64,000 nucleotides of DNA from an uncultured Gammaproteobacteria bacterium (GCA_963729605.1 CAVSNY010000003.1:160001-224000), one strand, 5' to 3'. Positions 15,119 through 31,251 are shown, numbered from the stretch's first letter. Program-made: numbers and translations. The notes: generated by a model from the letters alone, not told the origin.

Positions 15119-15157
15119 TGGAAACCATGCAGCCAACATGTGGTTGAGGAGGACGAG

Positions 15158-15481
15158 ATGAAAGGCGGATTGGGCAACATGATGAAGCAGGCGCAGCGCA
15201 TGCAGGAAAACGTGCAGCGCGCGCAGCAGGAATTGGCGGAGATGGAAGTCACCGGCCAGGCCGGCGGCGGCATGGTCAGCGTGGTGATGACCGGCCGGCA
15301 TGACGTGAAGCGGGTCAACATCGACGCCGGCCTGATGCAGGAAGACAAAGAGATGCTGGAAGACTTGCTGGCCGCCGCGGTGAACGACGCGGTGCGGCAG
15401 ATCGAAACCCGCACTCAGGAAAAAATGGCCAGCGTCACCTCGGGCATGGGACTGCCCGGCGGATTCAAGATGCCGTTTTGA
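15158..15481 (+). CDS. ybaB: YbaB/EbfC nucleoid-associated protein
   Basis: [30 protein letters not shown]; dnaX-ybaB-recR synteny. Confidence 0.95.
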
Positions 15482-16086
15482 TGAACTTGGCGCGGGATAC
15501 TTCGCTCATCGCGGAATTGATGGAGGCGCTGCGCTGCCTGCCGGGCGTGGGGCCGAAGTCGGCGCAGCGCATGACCTATCATCTGCTGCAACGCAACCGC
15601 GAGGGCGCGCGGCGTTTGGCGCAGGCTCTGGCGGGCGCGGCGGAGCGGGTCGGTCATTGCGCGTGTTGCCGCACCTTCACCGAACTGGAGGTGTGCGCCT
15701 TGTGTAGCAGCGCGCAGCGCGATCACGCCCAGTTGTGCGTGGTGGAATCGCCGGCCGATGTCTTGGCGGTGGAACACGCCACCGGTTACCGCGGTTTGTA
15801 TTTCGTATTGATGGGCCACCTCTCGCCCTTGGACGGCATCGGTCCCGAAGAACTGGGCGTGGCGCACTTGCTGGACCGGCTCGCCGAGGGTGAAATCAAA
15901 GAAGTGATCCTCGCCACCAATCCCACCGTGGAAGGCGAGGCCACCGCTCATTACCTCAGCGAGCTGGTGCGGGCGCGCGGTATCAAGGCCAGCCGTATCG
16001 CCCACGGTGTGCCTCTCGGCGGTGAATTGGAATATATCGACGGCGGTACGCTGTCGCACGCCTTCGCGGGACGTAAATCGCTGTGA
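15481..16086 (+). CDS. recR: Recombination mediator RecR
   Basis: [12 protein letters not shown]4 zinc finger, [18 protein letters not shown]. Confidence 0.97.
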
Positions 16087-16215
16087 TCCGTTCGCCGTTG
16101 CGCCCGCGGTGCGAACCTGTTTCTTCACGTCGTGAGCAAACCGCGTTGCATGCGCTTAACCTCGGCGCTATACCATGCTAATCTCCGACCTCATGTCTGT
16201 GAGAGGTTATCGCAA

Positions 16216-16611
16216 ATGATGGCGGAAACGGTGTGGGTGGCGGCGGGAACCTATCTGATAATGCTCGCCGCTTTTTACTTGTCTCGTTATCGCTGGGTGC
16301 ACATCCCCATCATGGTCAGCGTGATGTTGTTCGATCTGGCCATGCCGTTTTATCTTTATCTCACCGGCGACTGGTATCGCCGTTTGATCGAGCAGGAAGA
16401 GATATTTTCTTTTCTGATCTGGATGCACGTGGGTTTGGTGTTCACGCTTTATGCGCTGTACTTTCTTCAAATCCAGGCGGCGCGTAAGATATTCCGCGGT
16501 GACGCCGAAGGTCGCGCCGACCACCGTAGTCAAGCCAAGGCGGTACTTTTGGTGAGAGGATTGGTGCTGCTCACGGCGGCTCTATTGGTGGAGCCGGATC
16601 CCGTTTCTTAA
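16216..16611 (+). CDS. Hypothetical 3-4 TM membrane protein
   Basis: GAGAGG RBS before ATG 16216; hydrophobic helices containing His residues. Confidence 0.6.
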   Translation: MMAETVWVAAGTYLIMLAAFYLSRYRWVHIPIMVSVMLFDLAMPFYLYLTGDWYRRLIEQEEIFSFLIWMHVGLVFTLYALYFLQIQAARKIFRGDAEGRADHRSQAKAVLLVRGLVLLTAALLVEPDPVS

Positions 16612-16664
16612 GTCTTGATACTCCGGTGCAGGGGTAAGAGATGTCCTGACCGAGGAGAAATGTT

Positions 16665-17114
16665 ATGCAGTTGACGCTTTATACCGATTATTCGTTGCGG
16701 GTGTTGCTGTATCTCGGGCTGGCGCCGGAACGTACCGCCACGATCACGGAAATCGCCCGCGCCTATGGCATTTCGCGCAACCACCTGGTGAAGGTGGTGC
16801 ATAATCTGTCCATCCACCAATTCATTCTCACTACCCGCGGCCGGGGCGGCGGCATCGGCCTGGCGCGGCCGCCCGAAGAGATCGTCATCGGCGATGTGGT
16901 GCGTCACACCGAAATGAATTTCAATTTGGTGGAGTGTTTCAACCGCGAGCATAATACCTGTCCCATTTCGTCGGCCTGTATTCTCAAAGGCGCTTTATAC
17001 GAGGCGCAGCGCGCCTTCATGGCGGTGCTCGATAAACACACCTTGGCCGATGTCCTTAAAAACAGCGATTGGCTGCGTTCGGTGTTGCGGATGCAGAACG
17101 CGCTCGCGAGTTAA
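16665..17114 (+). CDS. nsrR: Rrf2-family regulator, NsrR-like
   Basis: MQLTLYTDYSLR, SRNHLVKVV, RGRGGG, three Cys (ECF..C..C). Confidence 0.85.
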   Translation: MQLTLYTDYSLRVLLYLGLAPERTATITEIARAYGISRNHLVKVVHNLSIHQFILTTRGRGGGIGLARPPEEIVIGDVVRHTEMNFNLVECFNREHNTCPISSACILKGALYEAQRAFMAVLDKHTLADVLKNSDWLRSVLRMQNALAS

Positions 17115-17297
17115 GAATATTGAATCGGGATGAGATGCGATGCGCGAGGGCATCGCTGATTCACTGAGACGTCCTCCGGCTCTCCCGGGAGGGCTCATCA
17201 AAGTTGATTCCTGTGGCCGCTGTTGGTGATGTCCCAAGGGGCGGGATGGCCGTAGCGCCGGGGGGTCGCTCTTTTCCTAAATGGTATTTCAGGGTCC

Positions 17298-18323
17298 CTA
17301 GGTTTTCATCGCGGCGGCGATGCGCCGGTAACTCGCCAGCCGCCGCGGACTGATTTCCCCGTTGTCGGCGGCCATGCTCACTGCGCAATCCGGTTCGCTG
17401 CGGTGAGTGCAATTGTTGAAGCGGCAGGCGCCGGCGTAGCGGCCGAACTCCAAAAAACCTTCCGCCAGTTCCGCGATATCGACATGCCACAAGTCGAAAT
17501 CGCGCACGCCGGGCGAGTCGATCAGATCGCCGCCGCCCGGCAAATGATACAGCGCCGCCGTGGTGGTGGTGTGACGCCCCTCGCCGCTGTTGGCCGACAC
17601 GGCGCCGATGCGGATCTCCTGCCCGGGGTGGAGGGCCTGGGCGAGCGAGGATTTGCCCACCCCCGATTGGCCGATGATGACGCTGGTTTTGTTGCGCAGG
17701 GCCTCCGTCAACGGCGTCAAGCCTTGCTGTTTTTTCGCGGCGGTAAACAACACCGGATAACCGATGCCGCGATAAATCGCCGCGAGTTGTTCGGCCGCCG
17801 CGCGGCCGCCGTCGCTGAATAAATCCGCTTTGTTGATCAGGATCAATGCGTCGATGCGGCACAGCGCGGCGGCGGCGAGATAACGGTCGATCAATTGTTC
17901 ATCGAGCACCTGATCGTTTTCACTGGCGGTGGCGGCGTCGTGGGCGGGGCGGTGACGGGGTGCGGTGACCACGATGAGTTGATCGACGTTGGCGGCCATG
18001 GGTTTGAGCTGGCCCCGCGGGTCGGGCCGCACCAGCAGCGATTGACGCGGTTCCAGGGCGAGAATGACGCCTTCGTCCAAGTTGGTGGCCTGCCAGCGCA
18101 CGCGGTCGCCGCACACCAACGCGCCGGCCTTTTTGCGCGCCGTGCAGCGATGAACATGGCCTGCGCTATCTTCTATTTCCAGGGCGGCGCCGAAGTTGCT
18201 GATCACCAGGCCGGGCAGGCCGTCCGCGGCGTCGCTGTCCGGCGTTACGGGCGCGGTATGGCGCGAACGCTTGGATGAAGGGCGGGGCGTGAATTTGCTC
18301 ATGCCGTGCGATGAGCCTTTCAT
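17298..18323 (-). CDS. rsgA: Ribosome small subunit-dependent GTPase
   Basis: NKAD, GQSGVGKSS, GRHTTT, DSPG, C..C.H..C zinc site. Confidence 0.95.
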   Translation of the reverse strand: MKGSSHGMSKFTPRPSSKRSRHTAPVTPDSDAADGLPGLVISNFGAALEIEDSAGHVHRCTARKKAGALVCGDRVRWQATNLDEGVILALEPRQSLLVRPDPRGQLKPMAANVDQLIVVTAPRHRPAHDAATASENDQVLDEQLIDRYLAAAALCRIDALILINKADLFSDGGRAAAEQLAAIYRGIGYPVLFTAAKKQQGLTPLTEALRNKTSVIIGQSGVGKSSLAQALHPGQEIRIGAVSANSGEGRHTTTTAALYHLPGGGDLIDSPGVRDFDLWHVDIAELAEGFLEFGRYAGACRFNNCTHRSEPDCAVSMAADNGEISPRRLASYRRIAAAMKT

Positions 18324-19570
18324 CCTGGCCGTGAGTGCGCGGCGAGTTGGGCGATGCGCACCGGCGCCGGCGGATGGCTGTCGTGATAGGCCGAATACCA
18401 GGGATCGGGCGTGAGGGTCGCGGCGTTTTCCTCATAGAGTTTGACCAGGGCGTCGATGAGCGGCTGGGCGCCGGTTTGCCGCGCGGCGAAGGCGTCGGCC
18501 TCGAATTCGTGTTTGCGCATCCAATAGGCGGACAGCGGATGAAACAGGATCGTGAAATAGGGCGCGGCGAACAGGAACAGCAAGAGCAGGGCGGGGGCTG
18601 ATGCTTCTTGCATGCCGAGTCCTTGATAGAACCAGGTCTGGCCGCTCAGCCAGCCGAGCGCCGCGAAGCCGATGAAGGTGGTCACCGCCATCATCAGCAG
18701 GCGTTGGGTGATATGGCCGTGTTTGAAATGGCCCAGCTCGTGGGCGAGCACCGCCTCGATTTCATCGGGGGTGAGGGTCTTCAACAAGGTATCGAAGAAC
18801 ACGATGCGTTTATTGGCGCCGAAGCCGGTGAAATAGGCGTTGCCGTGTTGCGAGCGGGTGGAGCCGTCCATCACGAAGATGCCGCTGCTGGCGAAGCCGC
18901 AGCGCTCCAGCAGGCCGACGATACGGCGATGCAGGTTTTGATCTTGCAGCGGCGAAAATTTATTGAAGAGCGGCGCGATCCAGGCGGGGTAGGCCCACAT
19001 CATGATCAGGCTCAGTCCCATCCAGGCCGCCCAACCCAGCAGCCACCACCACATTCCGCTGGAGGCGAGCAGCCAGAGCAGGAGGGCGATGACGGGGACG
19101 CCGATCAGAATGAATAACAGCCCTTGTTTGAGCAGATCGGTAATGAACAGCCGCGGTGTCGTGCGGTTGAAGCCGAAACGCGCCTCCAGGCCGAAGGTGC
19201 GATAGGCGTCCAGCGGCAGGCTTAATAAACTGGAGATCAATAATACGCTGACCATGAAGCCGATGCCGGGCAGCAGCGAAGCGTGGGAGTCGACGTTCCA
19301 CCCGTCGGCGAGCAGCGCCAGTCCACCGCCGAGGGTCCAGGCCAGGACCAGCAGGGCACCGCTGATGATACTCGTATACTCCAGCCGCATTTTGGCCTGC
19401 GTATAATCCGCGGCCTTTTGGTGGGTGGCGAGCGGGATGCGGCCGTCAAAGGCGGCGGGGACGCGGTCGCGATGGCGTATCACGCTGCGGGATTGCCGGC
19501 GCGCCAGCCACAGTTCGATCGCGCTGGCGAGCAGGACCATGGCAATAAAGATTAAACTGAATTCATTCAT
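18320..19570 (-). CDS. M48 (Ste24-like) zinc metalloprotease
   Basis: NAYFTGFG, AHELGH, EFEAD, SHPP motifs. Confidence 0.92.
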   Translation of the reverse strand: MNEFSLIFIAMVLLASAIELWLARRQSRSVIRHRDRVPAAFDGRIPLATHQKAADYTQAKMRLEYTSIISGALLVLAWTLGGGLALLADGWNVDSHASLLPGIGFMVSVLLISSLLSLPLDAYRTFGLEARFGFNRTTPRLFITDLLKQGLLFILIGVPVIALLLWLLASSGMWWWLLGWAAWMGLSLIMMWAYPAWIAPLFNKFSPLQDQNLHRRIVGLLERCGFASSGIFVMDGSTRSQHGNAYFTGFGANKRIVFFDTLLKTLTPDEIEAVLAHELGHFKHGHITQRLLMMAVTTFIGFAALGWLSGQTWFYQGLGMQEASAPALLLLFLFAAPYFTILFHPLSAYWMRKHEFEADAFAARQTGAQPLIDALVKLYEENAATLTPDPWYSAYHDSHPPAPVRIAQLAAHSRPG

Positions 19571-19654
19571 GATGGGTTCCACGCAGCCGGCCGAGATGCG
19601 TTTTGTTACAATGCGGGGTGATAATCCGTTTAATCAATGCTGGAAGGATGGTCA

Positions 19655-20218
19655 ATGACTCAGGATCCGTTGAATCTCATCTGGATCGACCTGGAAATGA
19701 CGGGGCTCGATACCAACCGCGATTATATCATCGAGATCGCCACCGTCATCACCGATAGCGCGCTCAATATACTGGCGGAGGGCCCGGTGCTGGCGATCCA
19801 TCAGTCCGACGAGACGTTGAACGCCATGGACAATTGGAATCAAAACCAGCATGGCAAATCGGGGCTGATCGACCGGGTGCGCGCCAGCCGGGTGAGCGCG
19901 GCGGACGCCGAGCGGCAGACCTTGGAATTCGTCCGGCAGTATGTGCCGTCGCGCGGCTCGCCGATGTGCGGCAACAGCATCTGCCAGGACCGGCGTTTTC
20001 TTGCCCGCTGCATGCCGGCCTTGGAGGCCTATTTTCACTATCGCAATCTCGACGTGAGCACGGTGAAGGAATTGGCGCGGCGCTGGGCGCCGGCGGTCTA
20101 CGGCGGTTTTACCAAGGAGAGCAGTCATCTGGCCCTCGAGGATATTCGCGATTCGATCAACGAGCTGAGATATTACCGCGAGAGTTTTTTCCGTCTGCCG
20201 GGCGGCCCGTCAGTATAG
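19655..20218 (+). CDS. orn: Oligoribonuclease
   Basis: [30 protein letters not shown]. Confidence 0.97.
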
Positions 20219-21685
20219 GCGGTAGGAGACCGGCAGGCGGACCGAGATCTGGACGTCCGGCGCGTCCTCGGTGATTCCCGCGCCGAGCGACACCGAGAAG
20301 CTGCTGCTTTTACCGACCCGATGCGATGCGCCGAATAACAAGCTGCCGATTTGCAGCGTCTGCGAGCCGGGTATGTTTTCGCCGTTCCGAGTGGTTTTGC
20401 CTACGCTGCTATGGCTATAGCCGAGGCTGAAGGACGCGTTTTGATTGATGGCGAAACCCATGCCGAAACTGAGACCGAACGCGTCGCCGGGATCGATGTT
20501 GCCGGTCTGGGCGTTGACGTCGCGCTCCAGATTCCACAGATAGCTGACATTGCCGAAGAACACCGCCGGGTCGGAAGGCAGGCTGATGGTTAAACTCGGT
20601 TGTATGCCCCAGAAGCCCGAGCCCGTCGGCAGGCTGGTTTGCAAGCCGGTGGCGGGGTCGGTCTTGATTTCGAACGGATCGCTGCCGGTGGTGGATTTTA
20701 CGCGAAGGTTGGCGAGGTAATAGGCCCGGCCCGGTCCGCCGCGGTTGATTTGATAATGCAGACCTAGTTCCGCGTCGCCCAGCCCGTCGCCTTCCACGTT
20801 TACCGTTTCATCTCGATCGGACGGCGAGGCCAGCGGCCGGGTCACGGTGGTATCGCTGCGTGAGACGTAGGGCACGCGGAATTCCATTTCGAAACGGTTG
20901 GTCAGCCCGTAACGAAGGCCCAGTGCGGCATTGACGGTGTTTCTGTTGACCGCGCGCACGTCGATCGCGCCGATGGTGATGGAGGGAATGACGGTGAAAC
21001 CTTCCAGCGCCACCCGCGTCACGCTCGAGTGGGTGTATTGCAGGGACGGTTCCACCACCAAAGTTCCCTGCGGTGTGAGTATGCCGTGTTGCTCGAGAAT
21101 GTCCGCGACCTGTTTCTGGCGGGTCTTTTCCTCGGGAGGCGCTTGCCCCACCGGCTCGCTGGGCGCTTCCTCGCGGGACACCGCCGGCTTGGGTGGCTGC
21201 GGCGGCGGGGCGGGCGGAGGCGCGGCGGGTTGAGGGGCAGGCTGCGGCGCGGGCGCCGGAATGGGCGCTGGAATGGGCGGCGTCGCGGCGGGTTCCGTCG
21301 GCGCGGGGATGGGCGCGATGGGCGGTTGCGCCAGTTCTTCGATCTGCAGGCGCAAACTGTCTAGGCGATTCTTTTGCTCTTCATAAATGCGCTGTTGTTC
21401 TTGAATCTGCTCGGATTGTCTTTGCAGCTTCTGTTGCTGTTCCAGCATGCGCTTCTGCTGCTCTTCCAATGCACGCTCAACGGTCTTCTCTTTTTCGGCC
21501 AACCGTTTTCTCTCGAGGTTGAATTTCTCGATTTCCTCCAGTAATTGCTCGGGAGAACTGGCCGGTGGCAGGGCGTTACCCTCTTGCGCGAAACCGGCCG
21601 ATGTGTCCGTCAACGCCCAGATTAAAAATAAAAACGGTAGCGCCTTGTCGCAGGCGCTACCACGGGTTGAGGGATTTTTTCGCAC
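20210..21685 (-). CDS. fapF: FapF-like outer-membrane beta-barrel exporter with N-terminal coiled coil and Pro-rich linker
   Basis: Signal peptide, Q/E-rich coiled coil, PAP linker, then [44 protein letters not shown] barrel motifs; last gene of C39-containing operon. Confidence 0.75.
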
Positions 21686-21713
21686 AAAAGCTACAATGAT
21701 CTTTTATATAAAA

Positions 21714-22130
21714 TTAGCGCTTGGTGATGGCTTCATTGCCGCTGCGTCCACCGAAGCGGCCGCGGATTTCCTCATAACGTTGGCGTTGTTCGGCATAAGC
21801 GCGTTTTTGCTCGGAAAGCTGCCGCTCGAAATCCTCCAATGAACGCCGTTGAGTGTCCAGCGTGCGCTCGTGATCGACCAGGTAGGTGGCCAGCTGCTTT
21901 TCGCGCTCGTCGAGCTTTTTCCGTTCGGCGGCGAGGGCTTCGAGTTCTTCTTGAAGCGACCGTTGTTTCACGAACAATTCGCCGGTCTGCTCGGTGATGG
22001 CCTGATTTAATTTCTTTAATGCATCCGGCGAGGTTTCCGTTCCTGCATCGGCGGCGTGGACGGGATTGAGCGTCCATGCGGCGGTCAGCAACAACACGGC
22101 GGTCATATTAATACGTAAATAATTATTCAT
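21714..22130 (-). CDS. Secreted coiled-coil hypothetical protein
   Basis: GGAG RBS before ATG 22130; signal peptide ending VHA-A; uninterrupted heptad helix ending YEEIRGRFGG. Confidence 0.7.
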   Translation of the reverse strand: MNNYLRINMTAVLLLTAAWTLNPVHAADAGTETSPDALKKLNQAITEQTGELFVKQRSLQEELEALAAERKKLDEREKQLATYLVDHERTLDTQRRSLEDFERQLSEQKRAYAEQRQRYEEIRGRFGGRSGNEAITKR

Positions 22131-22199
22131 ACCATTCTCCTCAACGATGCGAAGCACTACGAATGTATGGTTGGGCACCACAATTCGCTGATTTTAACT

Positions 22200-22733
22200 T
22201 TAAAACAATGAATTCAATAATTGATCGTTTATTGTATGTCCCAACGAGCCAAAGGGCGTGGTCGGTAAATTTTTAATGTCGATGTTGAGCACAGTTAAAT
22301 TATGCAGCGTCTGATGGTCAAGGCTGTTTTGCAGTAAGGTTAAATATCCCGCGACCGGTAATGAAAGTGCCGGGGCGGGAGCCAGGTTTCCTTCACCGGA
22401 TTGGATTATCCTTATCGGTTGAATGTCGCTGACGAGCTTGGCGGCATTACGGTGATCGAGCCGGGAGATATCCAGCGCAAGTTTGGTTTGCAGTATGCCG
22501 TTTATGAAGGCGGCTTGCTCATAACCTATGGTGATTTCAATGCCATCGGCGGTCATGAAACCGCCGCGCAAACCGGCCATTTCTTCCTGGCTGAGCGGCA
22601 TGAATTCGGTAAGCGGGTCGCCGAGTAAGGTTCCGGCGCGCGCCGTATTCAGGGTCATGGCCAGGGGTATGGCAATAAACACCAAGCTGAGCAGGCGGAC
22701 AAAGACCGAAGTTGGGTGCATTTTAAAACTCAT
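22200..22733 (-). CDS. fapE: FapE-like secreted accessory protein
   Basis: Signal peptide; LSQEEMAGLRGGF motif; IIQSGEGN and LQNSLDHQTL. Confidence 0.65.
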   Translation of the reverse strand: MSFKMHPTSVFVRLLSLVFIAIPLAMTLNTARAGTLLGDPLTEFMPLSQEEMAGLRGGFMTADGIEITIGYEQAAFINGILQTKLALDISRLDHRNAAKLVSDIQPIRIIQSGEGNLAPAPALSLPVAGYLTLLQNSLDHQTLHNLTVLNIDIKNLPTTPFGSLGHTINDQLLNSLF

Positions 22734-23451
22734 TTGCCCCCCTGAAGAATAAGGTCATGTCGGCAAGCATATTGCGATCGACCGCCATATCTATCGGCGC
22801 GCCGGTGGCCGCGTACCATTCTTCGCGGCCATTGAAATATTTGACGGCGATGTTGCGCTTGGAACGGACCAAGAACACGATGCCATTCCATATATTCTTG
22901 AACTCGGTGCGGGGAATTAATTTTATGCCCCGGGAAGGATCGCCAACCAATATATGTTGATCATTGATGCCTTTTATGACGACGAAATGATTGTAGCCGT
23001 CGCTGTTGATAAGGACGATGGCGGGGACGCCGATCCCTGATAATTTTTCGAGGGGCAGACGAAAACCGTCCGCTCGATAGCCGTTGGCCTCCAGATAATT
23101 TTTCATATCCAGCAGTGAGAAACCTTCTTTTTTGATTTTTTCTTTGTTTCCACTGTTATACATGGATAAAAAAACATCCCGTTCCGAAACGGGATGTTCG
23201 TAATGGTAAGTAAGCAATGTCGCAAGCGCGGCGGAACCGCAGCTGAAATCGTATTTCTGTTTAATGGTTTTAAGAAAAGAACGTTCTTGAAAGCTCTTGA
23301 CCGGCAAGGTTAGCGAGGCTTCGGAAGAACGCAGTATGACTTCGCCCGCATGAAGCGGCTTTATCAATAAGACCAACGCCAATCCCACAATAATAAACGA
23401 TACCATTGGAAAGATGGCGCGTTTCGAGGATGTTGCGGGTCCGGTCATCAC
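22723..23451 (-). CDS. fapD: Stand-alone exported C39-family cysteine peptidase (FapD-like)
   Basis: KQKYDFSCGSAALATLL (Cys), GFSLLDMK, YNHFVV (His), GDPSRG (Asp); signal peptide; no ABC transporter domain. Confidence 0.88.
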   Translation of the reverse strand: MMTGPATSSKRAIFPMVSFIIVGLALVLLIKPLHAGEVILRSSEASLTLPVKSFQERSFLKTIKQKYDFSCGSAALATLLTYHYEHPVSERDVFLSMYNSGNKEKIKKEGFSLLDMKNYLEANGYRADGFRLPLEKLSGIGVPAIVLINSDGYNHFVVIKGINDQHILVGDPSRGIKLIPRTEFKNIWNGIVFLVRSKRNIAVKYFNGREEWYAATGAPIDMAVDRNMLADMTLFFRGANEF

Positions 23452-23828
23452 TGTTGTTTCTCGAGCGTCAGGTTGACGATGGTGGAATTTTGAATGATCA
23501 CATGATTTCCAGAATTCTGAATAACGGTGGCAAAGCCGCTGCTGTTGCTGAATGAATCATTGCTTACCGTATTGTTGCCGTTAGTGGTGCCGGTGACGAT
23601 GTTGCCGCTCATTTTGGCATTCATTTCTGAATCGTTGATGGTAAACCATTCAGTTACGCCTTGGGCGCGTTCGCCGTCCAGTTCATGCGAAGTTAATTTG
23701 TCTTGACTATCCAGCGTTGAATCCACTTCTCCGAGGTCACCCGCCTTGCTTGGCATGCAGAATGCGGCGGCCGCCAGGCTGAGCAGCAGGGGATGGACAA
23801 AACTATTGGTTCTAGCCTTCTTTGGCAT
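23448..23828 (-). CDS. Small secreted Fap-like subunit (candidate nucleator)
   Basis: Signal peptide; LTSHELDGERA; C-terminal NTVSNDSFSNSSGFATVIQNSGNHVIIQN repeat shared with the large subunit. Confidence 0.7.
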   Translation of the reverse strand: MPKKARTNSFVHPLLLSLAAAAFCMPSKAGDLGEVDSTLDSQDKLTSHELDGERAQGVTEWFTINDSEMNAKMSGNIVTGTTNGNNTVSNDSFSNSSGFATVIQNSGNHVIIQNSTIVNLTLEKQQ

Positions 23829-23857
23829 TGTTATATCCCGATATGTAAGTCCGTTTT

Positions 23858-23897
23858 AAAAGTGCCTGTGGACGGCGTACCACGCCGCCCACAGGCA
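23858..23897 (-). terminator. Intra-operon hairpin followed by ACTTTT (terminator or mRNA stabiliser)
   Basis: Minus strand TGCCTGTGGGCGGCGT-GGT-ACGCCGTCCACAGGCA-CTTTT directly after the large subunit stop. Confidence 0.65.
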
Positions 23898-23915
23898 GAC
23901 CCCAATCAATATTGC

Positions 23916-26006
23916 TTATTGACCATTCACGTTCGCTTGAATCGTGAAGTTTTGTTGGATTTCACTATTGGCACCGCTGTTCTGAGCGACTTGAGAAATG
24001 CCATTCACATTCGAGAATGATCCGTTGTCGATCGTATTGCTGGTGTTCGCTGTGTAGTCTCCGTTACCCATGGTTACGCTATTGTTGGACACAGTAGCAG
24101 CAAGCGTACTCTGAGCAACCGCGATATCCATATCGGAGATATTGATCTCCGTGCTGCTGTCGCTGTTGTTGGAGTCGTTGGTGCTGTTGTTGTTATTGGA
24201 GTCGGCGACGTTAGTGCTGTTGTCGCTGTTATCACTGTTGTCACTGTTGTCGCTGTTGTCGTTATTGGAATCCGCGGTGTTGATGCTGTTGTCGTTATTG
24301 GAATCCGCGGTGTTGATGCTGTTGTCGTTATTGGAATCCGCGGTGTTGATGCTGTTGTCGTTGTTGGAATCCGCGGTGTTGGTGTTGGTGCTGTTGTTTG
24401 AGTTGTCCGAGTTGTCGCTCAGATCATTCCCATTTCCGGAATCAGTGACCAAGATGCCACTGTTGCCAGAATTGCCGTTGGTGCTGTTGTTGCTGTTATC
24501 GTTATTGGAGTCAGCGGTGTTGATGCTGTTGTCGTTATTGGAGTCAGCGGTATTGTTGGAATTAGTCGTATTGTTGGAATCAGCGGTGTTAGTGCTGTTA
24601 TCGGAATTGTCCGAGTTGTCGCTCAGATCATTCCCATTTCCAGAATCCGTGACCAGAATGCCGCTGTTGCCAGAATTGCCATTGGTGCTGTTGTCGTTGT
24701 TGGAATCAGCGGTATTGTTGGAATTAGTCGTATTGTTGGAATCAGCGGTGTTAGTGCTGTTGTCGGAATTGTCCGAGTTGTCGCTCAGATCATTCCCATT
24801 TCCAGAATCAGTGACCAAGATTCCGCTGTTGCCAGAATTACCGTCGGTGCTGTTATCGTTATTGGAGTCAGCGACGTTAGTGCTGTTGTCGCTGTTGTCA
24901 CTGTTGTCGTTATTGGAGTCCGCGGTGTTGGTGCTGGAATCGTTGTTGGAATCGGCGGTGTTGATGCTGTTGTCAGAGTTATCCGAATTGTCGCTGTTGT
25001 CGGAATTATCGCTCAGGTCGTTACCGTTGCCGGAATCCGTGACCAAGATACCGCTGTTGTTGGCATTGCCGTCAGCCGCGACGCTGTTGTCACTATTGTT
25101 GGAGTTGTCGCTGTTGTCGTTGTTGGAATCGGCGGTGTTGATGCTGTTGTCCGAGTTGTCCGAGTTATCCGAATTGTCGCTGTTGTCGGAATTATCGCTC
25201 AGGTCGTTGCCGTTGCCGGAATCCGTGACCAAGATACCGCTGTTGTTGGCATTGCCGTCAGCCGCGACGCTGTTGTCGCTGTTGTCGTTGTTGGAGTCCG
25301 CGGTGTTGGTGCTGGAATCGTTGTTGGAATCTGCTGTGTTAGTGCTGTTGTCCGAGTTATTCGAATTGTCGCTGTTGTCGGAATTGTCTCTCAGGTCGTT
25401 GCCGTTGCCGGAATCCGTGATCAAGATGCCGCTGTTGCCGGCATTGCCGTCGGCCGCGATGCTGTTGTCGCTGTTGTCGTTGTTGGAGTCCGCGGTGTTG
25501 GTGCTGGAATCGTTGTTGGAATCTGCGGTGTTGGTGCTGTTATTGGTGTTGTCGGTGCTGTTGTCGGAGTTGTCGGAGTTGTTTGAATTGTCGCTCAGGT
25601 CGTTGCCGTTACCGGAATCCGTGACCAAGATGCCGCTGTTACCGGCATTGCCGTCGGCCGCGATGCTGTTGTCGCTGTTGTCGTTGTTGGAGTCCGCGGT
25701 GTTGGTGCTGGAATCGTTGTTGGAATCTGCTGTGTTGGTGCTGTTGTTGGTGTTGTCGGTGCTGTTGTCATTATTGCTGTTGGCAGTGCTGTTATCGCTG
25801 TTATCCGAGCTATTTGAATTGTCTGAATTATTGGAGTTGTCTGAATTGTCGCTCAAGTCGTTGCCGTTGCCGGAATCATTAACGCTTACCGCGACGGAAT
25901 TATCGTTGGCGGACGAGGCGCCGTTATTGGATGTGGAGTCCGCCCAGGCCGGTGCAGAAAGGCCTAAGGCGAAGGTTACTGCTACAACTATAAGTTTCTT
26001 GTCCAT
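23916..26006 (-). CDS. Large secreted Ser/Asp/Asn-repeat protein with C-terminal Fap-like repeat (putative major fibre subunit)
   Basis: AGGAG RBS before ATG 26006; signal peptide ending AWA-D; eight DSGNGNDL-anchored units plus (SDN)n and NTADSNND sub-repeats; C-terminal SFSNVNGISQVAQNSGANSEIQQN. Confidence 0.8.
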   Translation of the reverse strand: MDKKLIVVAVTFALGLSAPAWADSTSNNGASSANDNSVAVSVNDSGNGNDLSDNSDNSNNSDNSNSSDNSDNSTANSNNDNSTDNTNNSTNTADSNNDSSTNTADSNNDNSDNSIAADGNAGNSGILVTDSGNGNDLSDNSNNSDNSDNSTDNTNNSTNTADSNNDSSTNTADSNNDNSDNSIAADGNAGNSGILITDSGNGNDLRDNSDNSDNSNNSDNSTNTADSNNDSSTNTADSNNDNSDNSVAADGNANNSGILVTDSGNGNDLSDNSDNSDNSDNSDNSDNSINTADSNNDNSDNSNNSDNSVAADGNANNSGILVTDSGNGNDLSDNSDNSDNSDNSDNSINTADSNNDSSTNTADSNNDNSDNSDNSTNVADSNNDNSTDGNSGNSGILVTDSGNGNDLSDNSDNSDNSTNTADSNNTTNSNNTADSNNDNSTNGNSGNSGILVTDSGNGNDLSDNSDNSDNSTNTADSNNTTNSNNTADSNNDNSINTADSNNDNSNNSTNGNSGNSGILVTDSGNGNDLSDNSDNSNNSTNTNTADSNNDNSINTADSNNDNSINTADSNNDNSINTADSNNDNSDNSDNSDNSDNSTNVADSNNNNSTNDSNNSDSSTEINISDMDIAVAQSTLAATVSNNSVTMGNGDYTANTSNTIDNGSFSNVNGISQVAQNSGANSEIQQNFTIQANVNGQ

Positions 26007-26124
26007 GATGCTCTCCTGAGTTGTTATCATTGCGTCCGCAATCGATTTCGTTGCGAGCGATTACTAGCAGTCGGGCGTCTTTTACGGCATAACCCCCCTA
26101 TCGCGCGTGCGATAGTGTGCGCGG

Positions 26125-26140
26125 TGCAATTCATACGCCA
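26125..26140 (-). promoter_or_regulatory. Sigma-54 (-24/-12) promoter of the Fap-like operon
   Basis: Minus strand TGGCGT-ATGAA-TTGCA matches TGGCAC-N5-TTGC spacing; about 120 bp upstream of the start. Confidence 0.7.
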
Positions 26141-26440
26141 TCTTTAATAGTTTTCTGTAAGCTTATGAATGAGTAATTCTTTGAGGTGTTGATTTGTGCG
26201 ATCATTCACGGGTATTGAAAAGAATCTCGACGATCAAGACGGATTGAAGCGTAGGGGTTTCTACTCATTCTCATTTTTTACTTAATTAGCAAGACGTTGA
26301 ATTGATGTGGCTTATATGTCTTCAAGCGAGCTTATGATGTTGTAAATATTTTCGACATGACGTAGACCGTCCCTGAAAACCCGCCATATCAGCCGAGGTG
26401 TTTTAAGTCATTCAAATTTATTTTTTAATTTTTGAAAATG

Positions 26441-26468
26441 AACGGGGCAATTATCGTATTGCCCGTTT
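26441..26468 (-). terminator. Probable queG terminator hairpin
   Basis: aacggggcaat-tatcgt-attgcccgtt inverted repeat with T-rich tail on the minus strand. Confidence 0.5.
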
Positions 26469-26517
26469 AAGCGACTAATGAGCTTTCCTGTGTCCTCAAG
26501 AGAATGTCTCTCAACAG

Positions 26518-27605
26518 TTAAATATGTTGTTCGAGCGCCCACATCACGTGTTCGCGCACGAGTTGGGAAGGATGGGAGAGACGTTGCCGCAGGGCGTGGA
26601 CGAGGTTTTCGCTGGTGGGGGCATTGCCCAGGGCCACGGCGATATTGCGCAGCCAGCTCAGGTGGCCGATGCGGCGGATGGCGCTGCCTTCGGTACGTTT
26701 GAGGAATTCTTCTTCAGTCCATGCGAATAAATCGATAAGGCTTGGTGCGTCGAGTTGGTGGCGGGTGAGAAAGTCGTCTTCGGCGCTCAGCCGCGCGAAG
26801 CGGTTCCATGGGCAGACCAATTGGCAATCGTCGCAACCGTAGATGCGGTTGCCGAGCATGGCGCGGAATTCCACGGGGATGCTGCCGCGCAATTCAATGG
26901 TGAGATACGAGATGCAGCGGCGGGCATCGAGCTGGTAGGGGCCGATGATGGCCGGGTCGGGCAGATGTCGATACAGGCGCGGCAGGTGCCGCAGTGGTTG
27001 ACGCCGGTGCGTCGACCGGCAGCGGCAGGTCGGTGTAGATCTCGCCGAGGAAAAACCAGGAGCCGGCGCCGCGGTTGATGCAGATTGGTATGTTTGCCGA
27101 TCCAGCCCAGCCCCGCCTTCTCGGCGATGGCCTTTTCCAGGACCGGCGCGCTATCGACGAAGACCCGATAACCGAACGGCACCGATCGCCGCTGCGATTT
27201 TGCGTCGCCAGTTGTTGCAGCCGCTGCCGCAGCACTTTGTGATAGTCGCGCCCGAGGGCGTAGCGCGAGACGTAGCCCAGGTGCGGGTCGCGCCAGCACG
27301 TCGTCCGGCTGGCGTGCTGTCGGGAGGCAGATAGTCCATTCGCGCGGAGATGACCCGCAAGGTATTCTCGGCACCAGTTCGGCGGGGCGGCTGCGTTTAC
27401 TGCCGTGCCGGGCCATGTAGTCCATTTCGCCGTGGTGACCGGCCGCCAGCCAGGTTTGCAGATGGGCCTCGTGGTCGTCGAGTTCGGTGTCGGTGATGCC
27501 GAGTTGCTGAAAGCCGAGTTCCTCGCCCCAGCGTTTGATGTCGGCGGCGAGTTGCGCCCAATCGGCGGGTGATGTTGGTGTGGTGCTCTGTCGCGGGTCT
27601 GGCAT
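26518..27605 (-). pseudogene. queG: Epoxyqueuosine reductase QueG, split by about 5-6 frameshifts
   Basis: Motifs RVISARMDY, SRYALGRDYHK, VDSAPVLEK, GSWFFLGE, CGTCRACIDICPT, IYGCDDCQLVCPWN fall in alternating frames. Confidence 0.85.
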
Positions 27606-27624
27606 AGCCGTTATGATAGCCGCC

Positions 27625-29118
27625 ATGCGAGATTTACCCCAGGCCCTTTATACCGCGCAGGCCGTGCGCGAACTCGATCGCCTCGCGATCGAGCAATACG
27701 GCATTGCCGGTTTGACGTTGATGACCCGCGCCGGCGAGGCGGTGTTCCGCGAACTGCGCCGGTGTTGGCCGCGGGCGCGGCGGGTGGCGGTGGTGTGCGG
27801 CGCGGGCAATAACGGCGGCGACGGTTTCGTGGTGGCGCGACTGATTTACGAGGCGGGTCTGTCGGTGACGGTGAGTTTGCTGGGCGACGCGGCGCAACTT
27901 AAAGGCGACGCGCGCCTGGCCTATGAAGCCATGACCGCGGCGGGTTTGAACGCCGAGCTATTTTCAGCGGAGTCTCTGCGCCAGGCCGACGTGGTGGTGG
28001 ATGCGTTGTTCGGCACCGGTTTGGACCGCGAGCCGCGCGGCCTTTATCTCGAGGCGATCACCGCCATCAATAACAGCGCTGTGCCGGTGATCGCGGTGGA
28101 CATCCCCTCCGGCTTGCACGCGAATACCGGCGCGGTGTTGGGCGCGGCGGTGCAGGCTCGCGTTACCGTGAGTTTTATCGGGCTCAAGCAGGGTTTGTTC
28201 ACCGGTGAGGGGCCCGCGCGATGCGGTGAGATCGTCTTTGACGATTTAGCGATATCGCCGGAAGCTTACAACCACATAGCGCCCACCGCTTTGCTCACTA
28301 ATGATGATGAACTGGCGGCCCGCCTGCCGCGCCGTGACCGCACCGCGCACAAAGGCCGTCACGGCCATGTGTTGATCGTCGGCGGCGATGCCGGCATGGC
28401 GGGCGCGGCGCGGATGGCGGCGCAGGCGGCGGCGCGGGTCGGCGCCGGCCTGGTCAGCATCGCCACCCATCCTCGACATGCCGCGTTTTGCGCGACCGTC
28501 CAACCGGAGATCATGTGTCACGCCGTGGCGGACGGCCATGACTTGCGGCCGTTATTGCAGCGCGCCGGTGTGGTGGCGGTGGGGCCGGGTTTGGGCACCG
28601 CCGCCTGGGGCAAGGGATTGTTCGACACGGTGCTCGATAGTGGTTTGCCGTTGGTGGTGGACGCCGACGCCTTGAACCTCTTGGCTCAAGATCCCGCGCG
28701 GCGGAAAAACTGGGTATTGACGCCCCATCCCGGCGAGGCGGCCCGTTTATTGGAAATGAGCGTGGCCGAAATCCAGTCGGATCGGTTTACTGCCGTGCGC
28801 GCATTGGCCGCGCGTTATGACGGCGTGGCGGTATTGAAAGGCGCGGGCAGTTTGATCGCCGGCACCACCGGGCCGGTGGCGGTGTGCGCCGCGGGCAATC
28901 CTGGCATGGCGACGGGCGGCATGGGCGATGTGCTCACCGGCGTGATCGCCGGACTCGTCGCGCAAGGGCTGGGTTTGCCGGAGGCGGCGCGGCTGGGTGT
29001 GCATCTCCATGCCCGCGCCGGTGATGCCGCCGCCCGCGGCGGCGAGCGCGGCATGCTGGCGACGGATCTGTTGCCGGAACTGCGTTACTGGGTGAACCCG
29101 GATTTATGGAACGGCTGA
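27625..29118 (+). CDS. nnr: Bifunctional NAD(P)HX epimerase/dehydratase
   Basis: CGAGNNGGDG, VDALFGTG, VDIPSG, HKG, GPGLG, TPHPGE, GGMGDVL. Confidence 0.95.
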   Translation: MRDLPQALYTAQAVRELDRLAIEQYGIAGLTLMTRAGEAVFRELRRCWPRARRVAVVCGAGNNGGDGFVVARLIYEAGLSVTVSLLGDAAQLKGDARLAYEAMTAAGLNAELFSAESLRQADVVVDALFGTGLDREPRGLYLEAITAINNSAVPVIAVDIPSGLHANTGAVLGAAVQARVTVSFIGLKQGLFTGEGPARCGEIVFDDLAISPEAYNHIAPTALLTNDDELAARLPRRDRTAHKGRHGHVLIVGGDAGMAGAARMAAQAAARVGAGLVSIATHPRHAAFCATVQPEIMCHAVADGHDLRPLLQRAGVVAVGPGLGTAAWGKGLFDTVLDSGLPLVVDADALNLLAQDPARRKNWVLTPHPGEAARLLEMSVAEIQSDRFTAVRALAARYDGVAVLKGAGSLIAGTTGPVAVCAAGNPGMATGGMGDVLTGVIAGLVAQGLGLPEAARLGVHLHARAGDAAARGGERGMLATDLLPELRYWVNPDLWNG

Positions 29119-29576
29119 TCCCCGACGAAGCGGCCACCCTGGCCTTGGGCGCGGCGCTGGCGCGGGCCTGCGCGCCGGGCACGGTGGTTTATCTGGTGGG
29201 CGAACTCGGCGCGGGCAAGACCACCCTGGTCCGCGGCTGGCTGCACGGCCTGGGTTATCGCGGCACTGTAAAAAGCCCCACCTATACCTTGGTCGAGCCC
29301 TATGAGGTCGCGGGATTGCGCCTCTATCATTGCGATCTCTATCGCCTGAACGATCCCGAGGAATTGGAATATCTCGGCCTGCGGGACAGCCTGGACGACC
29401 GCTCGCTGCTGTTGATCGAATGGCCATCGCGCGGTGGCGATAGATTGCCTCCCGCTGATTTGACTATCACTCTGCAACACCAAGTCGCGGGCCGGCGGGT
29501 AAACATGGTCGCCCACACGCCGCGCGGCGACTCCCTGCTTTCCCAACTCGACATGGCGGCCTTCAGCCCCGCTTGA
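29106..29576 (+). CDS. tsaE: tRNA t6A biosynthesis ATPase
   Basis: GELGAGKTT, VKSPTYTLVE, H.DLYR, IEW. Confidence 0.96.
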   Translation: MERLIPDEAATLALGAALARACAPGTVVYLVGELGAGKTTLVRGWLHGLGYRGTVKSPTYTLVEPYEVAGLRLYHCDLYRLNDPEELEYLGLRDSLDDRSLLLIEWPSRGGDRLPPADLTITLQHQVAGRRVNMVAHTPRGDSLLSQLDMAAFSPA

Positions 29577-29731
29577 GACAGGCCGATAGCCGTTGGTGAA
29601 TGGCAGATAGCGGCGACTATTGTATCCACCAGACAACATCGTGACCTAACTAGCCGATTCGATTTAAAAATGCTTGCGAAACGCATCATGATTCGGTATA
29701 TCATGCCGGAGAGCGCTACAGGGACGCGGAG

Positions 29732-31150
29732 ATGAAAAGAATATTGGCTCTATTATTGTTACTGGTATCCACCCCGAGTCAGGCGGCGACCAAGGTGGAA
29801 CAGGTGCGACTCGCCTCCGCCGCCGATGTCACCCGTGTCGTGTTTCATTTGAGCGCGCCGAGCACCTATAAACTATTCAGTCTGCCCAACCCCAACCGGG
29901 TGGTCATCGATATCGCCGATGCCCGCTTCGCCACCACGCTGGCCGGGGTGGATTTCACCGGCAGCGCGGTCAAAACCTTGCGCACCGGGCCCCGCGACGG
30001 CGGCGCCTTGCGCGTCGTATTGGAAGTGAACGGCAAACCCAAGCCCAAGAGTTTCATCCTCCAGCCCTCCGAGGGGCAAGGTTATCGCTTGGTCGTGGAC
30101 TTGGAATCGCCGGGCGTGGTCAACGTGGCGCAGGCCGCGCCGAGCCCGCTGCCCGTTCCGGCCGCCGTGTCGGTGATCGACGCCACACCCAATGTCGCCG
30201 CCGCCGCGCCGAGTGTCGCCATCGCGCCGCCCGTGCAAAACATAATATCCGCCCCCGCCAACAGCGCCAAAGAGCCGCTGCGCGATCTGGTCATCGCCAT
30301 CGATGCCGGCCACGGCGGCGTCGATCCGGGCGCCATCGGTCCGAACGGCACCCGTGAAAAAGACGTGGTTCTCGCCATCTCGCGCCAGCTCGAAAGTCTG
30401 ATCCGGGCCGAACCCGGCATGCGGCCGATCATGGTGCGCGACGGCGATTATTTCGTGCGGCTGCGCGACCGGGTCAACAAGGCCCGCGACGGCAAGGCCG
30501 ATTTGCTGATCTCGATCCACGCCGACGCGGTGAACGAGCGTTCGGCCAAAGGCTCGTCGGTGTATGTGCTCTCCAGCCGCGGCGCCAGCAGCGAGGCGGC
30601 GCGCTGGCTGGCCGAAAAGGAAAACGCCTCCGATCTGGTAGGCGGGGTGAGCCTGGACGACAAAGACGGCGTATTGAAATCGGTGCTGCTGGACTTGTCG
30701 CAAACCGCCTCCATCGAGGCCAGCCTGACCGCCGGCGGCCGGGTCTTGCGATATCTCAAGGATGTGAATCAATTGCACCGCCACCGCGTCGAGCAGGCGG
30801 GCTTCGCGGTGTTGAAGGCGCCGGACATCCCTTCCATGTTGGTGGAGACCGCCTTTATTTCCAATCCGGATGAAGAAAGAAAGCTTAGTTCGGCCGCTCA
30901 CCAGCGCCAACTCGCGCTCGCCATCCTCAACGGCGTGAAGGATTATTTCCGCACCCACGCGCCGCCGGGCACCAAGTTTGCGTTGTGGAATTCCTCGCGC
31001 CAGCACGTGGTCGCGCGAGGCGATACCCTGTCGGGCATCGCCGATCGGTACGGCATCAGCATCGCCCAATTGCGGGTGAGCAATAAAATATCCGGCGATC
31101 GCCTGTTGGTGGGCGGCGTATTGCATATTCCTTCCAGCGACGGCACCTGA
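29732..31150 (+). CDS. amiB: N-acetylmuramoyl-L-alanine amidase (AMIN + Amidase_3 + LysM)
   Basis: [30 protein letters not shown]-terminal LysM; tsaE-amiB-mutL synteny. Confidence 0.9.
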
Positions 31151-31171
31151 TATTTTCAATATCCGTCACCG

Positions 31172-31210
31172 ACGGGGCGAACGGTTCACCGTTCGCCCCG
31201 TTTTGCTTTT
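31172..31210 (+). terminator. Rho-independent terminator after amiB
   Basis: ACGGGGCGAACGG-TTCA-CCGTTCGCCCCGT followed by TTTGCTTTT. Confidence 0.75.
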
Positions 31211-31251
31211 ATAATCCCCGGCATCTTCGTCTCGGATGCCGGCCGCCGTTC

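Follow-up and report, generated by a model that had tools for sequence, protein, structure and literature searches.

A stretch of 64,000 nucleotides from an uncultured Gammaproteobacteria bacterium (GCA_963729605.1, CAVSNY010000003.1:160001-224000; hereafter the window, in whose coordinates positions are given) was found to carry on its minus strand, at 20210-26030, six co-oriented open reading frames (ORFs), g1 to g6, which probably encode a system that is sister to the functional-amyloid (Fap) machine of Pseudomonas, with a leader-cutting protease and a fibre bearing a brush formed by the g1 product. What is new here is a canonical double-glycine leader on a FapE-type protein, g4, which is possibly what the protease cuts. 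Within the open literature searched, neither a description of the variant nor a double-glycine leader in FapE-type proteins was found. A preliminary description of the same DNA had placed six co-oriented genes between orn and queG, and ORFs were found at each of these places. The genes (lengths in amino acids, aa) and the segments on which the argument turns are as follows.

g1, 23916-26030, minus strand, 704 aa: Asn/Ser/Asp repeat protein, large subunit
g2, 23448-23828, minus strand, 126 aa: small subunit
g3, 22723-23451, minus strand, 242 aa: C39 peptidase, FapD-like
g4, 22200-22733, minus strand, 177 aa: FapE-like protein
g5, 21714-22181, minus strand, 155 aa: coiled coil
g6, 20210-21685, minus strand, 491 aa: FapF-like barrel
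Double-glycine leader of g4, 22560-22595, minus strand: residues 47-58, LSQEEMAGLRGG; predicted cut after G58
Leader-like motif of g2, 23658-23696, minus strand: residues 45-57, LTSHELDGERAQG
C-terminal Fap-type repeat module of g1, 23916-24158, minus strand: …FSNVNGISQVAQNSGANSEIQQNFTIQANV; matched by the small-subunit hidden Markov model (HMM)

The g2 and g3 genes overlap by 4 nt and g3 and g4 by 11 nt; g1 probably starts at the ATG at 26006, which is preceded by AGGAG, and g5 probably at the ATG at 22130. By a heuristic of our own (not SignalP), all six products were recognised as starting with basic residues, followed by a hydrophobic core and a cleavage motif of small residues, in agreement with the signal peptide that had been proposed for each.

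A FapD-like peptidase and a FapF-like barrel

The g3 product matched Peptidase_C39 (PF03412) with 80.5 bits against a cut-off of 22. Among NCBIfam models its best match was FapD (NF058616; 149 bits, E 1.2e-43, cut-off of 330 not reached) and its second best FilB (109.4 bits, cut-off of 475 not reached). Residues Q65, C71, H155 and D171 were invariant in all 27 aligned peptidases from variant and canonical operons, and the closest solved structure was 6mpz, a double-glycine motif protease (E 2.5e-10). By its sequence, g3 is clearly assignable as a stand-alone periplasmic C39 cysteine peptidase homologous to FapD.

In the g6 product, a signal peptide is followed by a coiled coil (about residues 45-120), a Pro/Ala-rich linker (about 121-190) and a barrel (193-486) with a PTG motif. 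It matched the FapF model (NF058560) with 149.5 bits (E 1.2e-43, cut-off of 700 not reached), the solved FapF structure 5o67 over residues 193-486, SLPTG motif included (E 5.9e-29), Phenol_MetA_deg (PF13557) with 36.8 bits against a cut-off of 22, and FilC with 49 bits (cut-off of 630 not reached). These matches clearly point to a FapF homologue in the outer membrane, the only FapF-like gene of the host genome, so that the barrel and the peptidase were both Fap-type as first supposed. The g5 product was related by BLASTP to residues 48-112 of g6 (35% over 65 aa, E 8e-9), and g5/g6 cross-matches also occurred in the three closest loci; g5 would thus be a secreted coiled coil resembling the N-terminal stalk of g6.

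The role of such a peptidase has been considered in Pseudomonas, where FapD is described as periplasmic, its catalytic Cys as required for FapC secretion, and FapE alone as losing its N-terminus (about 70 residues), the target being said to 'remain unclear' (in the accessible part of PMC5557850). The FapD substrate is called undetermined in the corresponding parts of both PMC5557850 (2017) and PMC6173800 (2018). A 2026 preprint (10.64898/2026.10.01.755530), in the part available, states only 'precursor processing' and proposes that FapE recruits FapB and then FapC.

A double-glycine leader on the FapE-like protein

In the g4 product, a signal peptide and the double-glycine leader precede a QN-rich C-terminal part that is a paralogue of g2. 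Comparison of the g4 family (16 sequences) with FapE (12 sequences) by hhalign related the two at 90.4% (E 1.4e-6) over 47 columns, which correspond to the segment past the signal peptide and the first strands. The g4 HMM matched 4 of the 12 FapE proteins and the FapE HMM matched five g4 relatives among about 3,500 ORFs, partly over the C-terminal region. The NCBIfam FapE model (NF058559, cut-off 250 bits) gave no match to g4 itself at E values up to 10, and matched 2 of 10 g4 relatives with 12.5 and 14.1 bits. Taken together, these profile comparisons argue for g4 as a distant relative of FapE, as the preliminary description had it.

The leader of g4, L47-S-Q-E-E51-M52-A-G-L55-R-G57-G58, can be written as Leu(-12)-X3-Glu(-8)-Met(-7)-X2-Leu(-4)-X-Gly-Gly, and the consensus given for double-glycine leaders in the accessible part of PMC6363468 is Leu(-12)-X3-Glu(-8)-Leu(-7)...Gly-Gly. 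The g4 leader thus agrees with the consensus for double-glycine substrates, its cleavage being a prediction only. Scored as alignment column counts, the 16 g4 relatives carried a hydrophobic residue at -12 (16/16), Glu at -8 (8/16), Leu or Met at -7 (16/16), Met or Leu at -4 (14/16), Arg at -3 (16/16), Gly at -2 (16/16) and Gly at -1 (15/16, with Ala once). In the 12 canonical FapE proteins the same columns held a hydrophobic residue at -12 (12/12), Glu at -8 (9/12), Leu or Met at -7 (12/12), Met or Leu at -4 (11/12), Arg at -3 (12/12) and Gly at -2 (12/12), whereas -1 was Arg or Lys in all 12. Judged from these columns, canonical FapE retains the leader frame, but with Arg or Lys at -1.

Run against 1.84 billion representatives, the g4 profile found 2781 relatives with an E value of 1e-3 or less; 1683 of them remained at a limit of 1e-10 and 60 at 1e-30. 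Among the best 150, RGG[FYW] was present in 148 and RG[AS][FYW] in the other 2, and the full pattern was found in 147. The motif lay beyond residue 90 in 59 of these 150. Long FapE-like relatives of up to 1017 aa have a signal peptide, then hundreds of Pro, Ala and acidic residues, then an RGGF leader, with the g4-like domain terminal (P0040, which has two leaders, P0062, P0075, P0094, P0098, P0128, and L055:7639-8964 on the minus strand); the form in L055 occupies the usual position between the C39 and FapF-like genes. Fusion of a C39 domain to g4 in the long relatives was considered and rejected, as none of the 20 tested contained a Pfam domain and the six examined had a signal peptide and a long Pro/Ala/acidic region ahead of the leader.

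A structural model of g3 (residues 36-242) in complex with g4 (residues 34-100) scored 0.80 (runs of 0.77, 0.80 and 0.81), and the best of three controls scored 0.01; 116 of 157 solved complexes attained that mark, as did 2 of 215 mismatched pairs, a calibration that holds roughly, own alignments having been used. The runs shared at least 65% of contacts, with a partner predicted local distance difference test score (pLDDT) of at least 49. The modelled interface joins residues 68-72, 105-117, 128-132 and 152-156 of g3, around Cys71 and His155, with residues 40-60 of g4. In this model the g4 leader, with its Gly-Gly, is set at the catalytic Cys/His of g3. Modelled as monomers, g4 and g2 gave pLDDT values of 58.7 and 53.1, respectively, each with a short helix at the leader; such poor models fit disordered secretion substrates and are proof of nothing.

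A single Fap-type repeat in both subunits

The small subunit, g2, consists of a signal peptide, the leader-like motif and one clear Fap-type repeat, GFATVIQNSGNHVIIQNSTIVNLT, which is invariant in the small-subunit family. Its leader columns (19 sequences) showed a hydrophobic residue at -12 (19/19), Glu or Asp at -8 (17/19), Leu at -7 (19/19), a polar residue at -4, Arg at -3 (18/19), Gly or Ala at -2 (19/19) and a variable -1, with RGG in the relatives from L053-L055. The g2 and g4 HMMs matched each other's families at the leader and at the C-terminal motif (GFATVIQNSGNHVIIQNSTIVNLT in g2, GYLTLLQNSLDHQTLHNLTVLNIDI in g4).

In the large subunit, g1, a signal peptide is followed by about 590 aa of Asn/Ser/Asp/Thr tandem repeats and a C-terminal module of about 80 aa. 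The repeats are tandem at the DNA level, as in a real repeat gene, and include the unit DSGNGNDL eight times, in seven cases with GIL[VI]T in front of it. Mature g1 is 29.8% N, 21.2% S, 16.5% D and 8.9% T; with 112 Asp, 3 Glu, 2 Lys and 1 Arg, its net charge is -112. About 84% of the protein is disordered low-complexity sequence, the one ordered module being short. That module is related to g2 by BLASTP (55% identity over 38 aa, E 2e-6), and g2, g4 and the g1 C-terminus would, on these alignments, have one module in common. Among full-length large subunits (n=11, a 71-aa fragment in L002 being left out), 8 were acidic and rich in Ser, Asp and Asn, with net charges of -21 to -154; those of L010 and L051 were not, and that of L008 was Gly-rich in the part examined. 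The small-subunit HMM matched 9 of 12 large-subunit C-termini, those of L005, L006 and L013 being unmatched.

A link between this module and the Fap repeat was seen at the profile level, where the small subunits were related to FapB by hhalign at 69.8% (E 4.1e-5). It was also seen in the 328-aa large subunit of L051 (10058-11044, minus strand), which has four tandem repeats of NTIKDNAFQxAEGITQVQQNNGxNNAMQQ, is not S/D/N-rich, and was matched among about 3,500 ORFs by the FapB HMM (1.7e-11) as well as by that of the small subunit (2.4e-6). This protein appears to bridge the two subunit families and so supports the Fap-repeat link. The earlier claim of one Fap-like repeat per subunit agrees with the one clear repeat found in each of g1 and g2 and with the FapB comparison and HMM cross-matches, and a second, degenerate repeat may lie upstream of the clear one. 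That g1 is the 'major' subunit was not upheld, there being no sign of which subunit is abundant.

No Pfam or NCBIfam family was matched by g1, g2 or g4, and at E values up to 10 NCBIfam gave nothing useful for g2 or for the g1 C-terminus. The small-subunit profile found no canonical FapB or FapC in 401 genomes at E up to 1e-4. The names of 22 g2 and 6 g4 relatives were all absent or 'hypothetical', as were those of the protein-atlas clusters nearest to g4 and g1, where the automatic name 'putative Dentin sialophosphoprotein' was set aside as reflecting composition only.

An unnamed family distinct from canonical Fap

A neighbourhood survey of the kind suggested by the preliminary description recovered the same gene set in 25 further loci. 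A small-subunit scan with two narrow peptide patterns and one genome per species, which gives a lower bound, found at least 15 loci labelled Chromatiaceae, Marinobacter, Methylococcales, Luteibacter, Aquisalimonas and Thiotrichales, together with one 'Deltaproteobacteria' and one 'Rickettsiales' metagenome-assembled genome. With class and phylum samples added and L016, L041, L042 and L046 dropped as duplicates, 26 distinct loci were tallied, the window included. A C39 peptidase was present in 25 of these, FapE-like and FapF-like genes in 24 each, a small subunit in 23, a large subunit in 12 and a coiled-coil gene, noted beforehand as an extra gene of this operon, in 4; all misses of core genes fell at contig ends or at the ends of fetched stretches. 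In all 22 loci having the three genes, small subunit, C39 and FapE-like stood in this order on one strand, and the FapF-like gene came next on the same strand in 11 of 24, lying otherwise upstream or on the opposite strand.

The FapF model matched 42 of 400 class genomes at E up to 1e-10. Among those counted are G039, G141, G296 and G308, marked as unpublished, with weak matches on which no other result depends. Only G378, which holds a canonical fapABCDEF operon (L029), passed the cut-off, with 766 bits. In 11 further loci with FapF scores of 368-487 bits, FapD, FapE and FapF were all present, and FapB and FapC were present in 10; neither of the two was found in L032. In a tree of 35 C39 peptidases, one branch parted 12 canonical from 23 variant sequences with a Shimodaira-Hasegawa-like approximate likelihood ratio test (SH-aLRT) value of 100; the groups had been set by best match and coincide with operon content. 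The two clades are sisters in a tree whose root is unplaced, and the word 'derived' in the earlier label of a Fap-derived system could not be kept.

One genome, G016, holds both operons, a canonical fapBCDEF and a variant (L039, L049), about 90 kb apart on contig C11. Since one genome holds a canonical fap operon too, the variant was taken as a sister system and not as a divergent orthologue. The small-subunit profile matched 12 of 401 class genomes (11 of 320 genera), and of the genomes with a canonical operon it matched G016 alone. The locus is outside Fap as NCBI defines it, as three equivalog cut-offs are not reached and the subunit architecture differs; the variant is an unnamed family of its own, and widespread.

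Comparison with known systems

The locus almost certainly works like Fap. Common to both are a Sec-exported gene set in the order subunit, subunit, periplasmic C39 (FapD), FapE-type protein and FapF-type barrel, a barrel with a coiled coil, linker and PTG motif, subunits with N/Q/G-rich repeats, and an L..(D)..EL..MRG motif after the signal peptide of the FapE-type protein. The two differ in several respects. The peptidase of the window falls in the separate clade, and its score and that of the barrel are far under the equivalog cut-offs. FapB and FapC have three linker-separated repeats, unlike g1 and g2, and the first subunit here ends, ahead of its C-terminal module, in some 590 aa of polyanionic Asn/Ser/Asp sequence. 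At 177 aa and with RGG, g4 stands in contrast to FapE, with 248-327 aa and RG[RK]; a leader-like motif is found here also in the small subunit, but not in FapB or FapC; and there is an additional free coiled-coil gene. As had been remarked, no FapA-like gene was found, the host genome giving no match to the FapA of L029, an empty result from a single query that proves little.

The C39 domains of AMS/PCAT systems (LahT, ComA, PCAT1) share with g3 the C39 fold and its Gln/Cys/His/Asp set, and the g4 leader follows their pattern, Leu(-12)-X3-Glu(-8)-Leu/Met(-7)-X2-hydrophobic(-4)-X-Gly-Gly, with the motif set on the catalytic site in the model. Their peptidase, however, is a cytoplasmic domain of an ATP-binding cassette (ABC) exporter, whereas g3 stands alone, with a signal-peptide-like N-terminus, and is predicted to be Sec-exported; no ABC transporter gene was found in the operon. 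In the present system a Sec signal peptide precedes the leader, as does a long pro-region in the 59 long relatives mentioned above, and export would proceed through the outer-membrane barrel.

The 'putative pilus' system Fil of Acinetobacter (NCBIfam FilB and FilC) likewise pairs a C39 peptidase that stands alone with an outer-membrane protein related to FapF, but by score is more distant than Fap, the peptidase and barrel alone having been compared. Curli (CsgA/CsgB, CsgG) is similar in principle, having unfolded repeat subunits, a dedicated outer-membrane channel and nucleation outside the cell. No sequence relation to it was seen, however: Pfam showed no curlin repeat in either subunit (E up to 0.1), and the channel, g6, is FapF-like; curli has no protease, and its CsgG channel is of another kind.

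Proposed mechanism and alternative explanations

It is proposed that Sec would take all six products into the periplasm, from where g6 would go on to form, in the outer membrane, a FapF-type barrel whose coiled-coil stalk lies in the periplasm, and g5, as a free copy of the stalk in this lineage only, may join or regulate it. The g3 peptidase would bind the double-glycine leader behind the g4 signal peptide, and probably that of g2 too, and would cut after the Gly-Gly (G57-G58 in g4), the cut licensing export through g6. Outside the cell g4 would serve as primer or anchor, g2 would stack by way of its one strand-turn-strand repeat of Fap type to give a cross-beta fibre, g1 would join the fibre by the same C-terminal module, and its disordered polyanionic tail of about 590 aa would project as a hydrated, cation-binding brush. 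Counted in favour of this proposal were the homologies, the kept gene order, the motif conservation, the controlled complex model and the FapD and FapE facts given in the accessible part of PMC5557850. The cleavage, the export, the formation of a fibre and the role of the tail are what we infer from these.

Several observations weigh against it. The g1 product has no leader, such a motif having been seen neither in g1 nor in FapB or FapC, and its route to export licensing is unexplained; with 112 Asp, it should also resist aggregation unless its charge is screened. Cleavage of g2 appears less certain, as the window sequence reads R-A-Q-G and not R-G-G and the family is polar at -4. At 69.8%, the relation of the subunits to FapB is a modest one, and the low-confidence monomer models of g2 and g4 leave a beta-solenoid unsupported by fold. 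The pass of the complex model may be memory of solved C39-leader complexes (6mpz and the PCAT1 entries), and the likeness of g5 to g6 could be one of coiled-coil composition.

One alternative is secretion or surface display without amyloid, in which the shared module would direct proteins to the FapF-like pore or anchor them there, and g1 would be a polyanionic passenger that is released or tethered. The largely disordered make-up of g1, with its one short ordered module, would be expected of a passenger, the monomer models of g2 and g4 show no stable fold, and the acidic, S/D/N-rich composition of 8 of 11 full-length large subunits suggests that the tail is a selected feature. The module of g1 and g2, however, matches the Fap repeat and no known secretion signal, and the four tandem repeats of the L051 relative are those of an amyloid-like subunit. 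Furthermore, 14 of 26 loci have no large subunit in the covered stretch, the small one being kept wherever the stretch reaches. Display without amyloid is regarded as unlikely.

It was also considered that the locus might be an ordinary fast-evolving fap operon, a fapBCDEF orthologue that has lost fapA. Its gene order equals fapB-C-D-E-F, and loss of fapA is given as the commonest variation in true Fap systems in the accessible part of PMC3792158. This explanation is nonetheless improbable, given the scores of about 149 bits against cut-offs of 330 and 700, the parting of 12 canonical from 23 variant peptidases (SH-aLRT 100), the presence of both systems in G016, which is the sole canonical-operon genome among the 12 of 401 class genomes matched by the small-subunit profile, and the RG[RK] of FapE (12/12) against the RGG of the g4 family (15/16). 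In the 2013 work just cited, a FapF HMM returned 217 hits; 68 were retained, and those left over were read as 'larger protein families' and, in the part available, not followed (PMC3792158). FapD and FapF hits of the present kind were there put aside as a 'larger family'.

A bacteriocin- or microcin-like export locus, in which g2 would be a peptide toxin with a double-glycine leader and g3 the peptidase that matures it, would account for the nearest solved relative of g3 being such a protease (6mpz), and C39 peptidases with double-glycine leaders are described as typical of class II bacteriocins (PMC6363468, in part). It is very improbable, however, as the operon has neither an ABC transporter nor an immunity gene, the Sec signal peptides on g3 and its presumed substrates would put processing in the periplasm, g2 ends in a Fap-type repeat, and the outer-membrane partner is FapF-like and not TolC-like. 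That g6 takes up hydrophobic compounds as a channel of the COG4313 type, with the other genes as unrelated neighbours, is scarcely credible: g6 does pass PF13557, and FapF itself is placed in the COG4313/Phenol_MetA_deg superfamily (PMC6173800, accessible part), but 24 of 26 loci have a FapF-like gene next to those for the C39 peptidase, the FapE-like protein and the subunits, g6 has the N-terminal coiled coil and linker of FapF, and in the same part of PMC6173800 C39 peptidases are unreported in operons with COG4313-like pores.

Genomic context of the operon

The operon is flanked by orn (NF003765, 297 bits against a cut-off of 106), which is convergent to g6 and overlaps it by 9 nt, and by queG (TIGR00276) upstream of g1, in the wider order rsgA-(M48 peptidase)-orn-[operon]-queG-nnr-tsaE-amiC. 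The order and orientation match those of Escherichia coli K-12, rsgA-orn-(three tRNA-Gly genes, glyVXY)-queG-nnr-tsaE-amiB, as expected from the synteny in enterobacteria noted beforehand. The gene for the M48-type peptidase (18320-19582, minus strand), so labelled from an HEXXH seen in translation and not from a family search, lies between rsgA and orn, where E. coli K-12 has no gene; a gene of this type also intervenes between rsgA and orn in L002, L003 and L050. In L050 (G188, another family of the class), FapF-like and C39 genes lie about 2 kb from orn-M48-rsgA in another arrangement.

The queG gene (26518-27626, minus strand) is broken into at least three frames, the adjoining genes all being whole; an intact QueG relative from L003 (364 aa) aligns in three frames over its residues 3-219, 103-194 and 212-357. 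Beside the upstream region of the operon there is thus either a pseudogene or a set of local assembly errors. That region is as follows.

Upstream region, 26031-26517, minus strand: AT-rich, GC 0.42

Presumably it contains the operon promoter. A promoter scan returned three sites against 4.9 expected, none of them upstream of g1; the sole block in common with the upstream region of L003 was the ribosome-binding site; and an Rfam scan of 19500-27000 gave one meaningless sub-threshold match and no family.

The operon had been described as AT-richer than its host, which holds for g2-g5, whose GC content at third codon positions is 0.56-0.62 against 0.72-0.80 in the neighbours, but not for g6 and g1, which at 0.73 each are host-like; the low GC of g1 is due to its amino-acid make-up. 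A recent island or insertion was considered unlikely: no tRNA gene was found within 15000-32000 and no flanking direct repeats were found, the operon occupies the same orn-queG slot in G292 (L042; same family, another genus), and it adjoins orn in G112 (L041; same genus).

Within coding DNA, terminator-like hairpins with 12-bp stems and T runs were seen at 21634-21663 (minus strand), in the signal-peptide codons of g6 just past g5, and at 23172-23199 (minus strand), within g3; the N-terminus of g6 in L002 differs in sequence, so that the former hairpin is probably not kept there. Antisense to g1, a Leu/Ser-rich ORF of 625 aa (24142-26019, plus strand) mirrors the repeat and is most likely no gene.

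DNA near-identical to 20300-23900 was present in metagenome contigs from 12 studies of wetland, biofilter, soil, freshwater, groundwater, sludge and bioreactor (31-mer shares of 0.30-0.46), and a habitat was not inferred because every share was below 0.5. Two RNA libraries from one study contained contigs that cover g5 and, in part, g6, g3 and the g2/g1 junction at 95-99% identity; in these, DNA carry-over is possible, neither level nor strand is shown, and uncovered parts are uninformative.

Significance

In its fullest form, and as a tentative suggestion only, the proposal is that a periplasmic C39 peptidase may read double-glycine leaders on a FapE-like primer and on the small subunit, thereby gating passage through the outer membrane, and that the resulting fibre may carry a giant polyanionic brush (net charge -112) binding cations or water. 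If true, this would be a two-step, leader-licensed secretion route, which would also explain the role of FapD in Pseudomonas, and environmental Gammaproteobacteria would have a charged amyloid matrix of a new kind. The textbook double-glycine site on a FapE-type protein makes the question of the FapD substrate directly testable. Nor is the variant rare, with its small subunit in 12 of 401 class genomes and a FapE-like family of 2781 representative clusters, although it is unnamed in the libraries searched. Subunits with a single repeat, one of them with a polyanionic tail of 590 aa, would widen the range of functional amyloids, and could serve as material.

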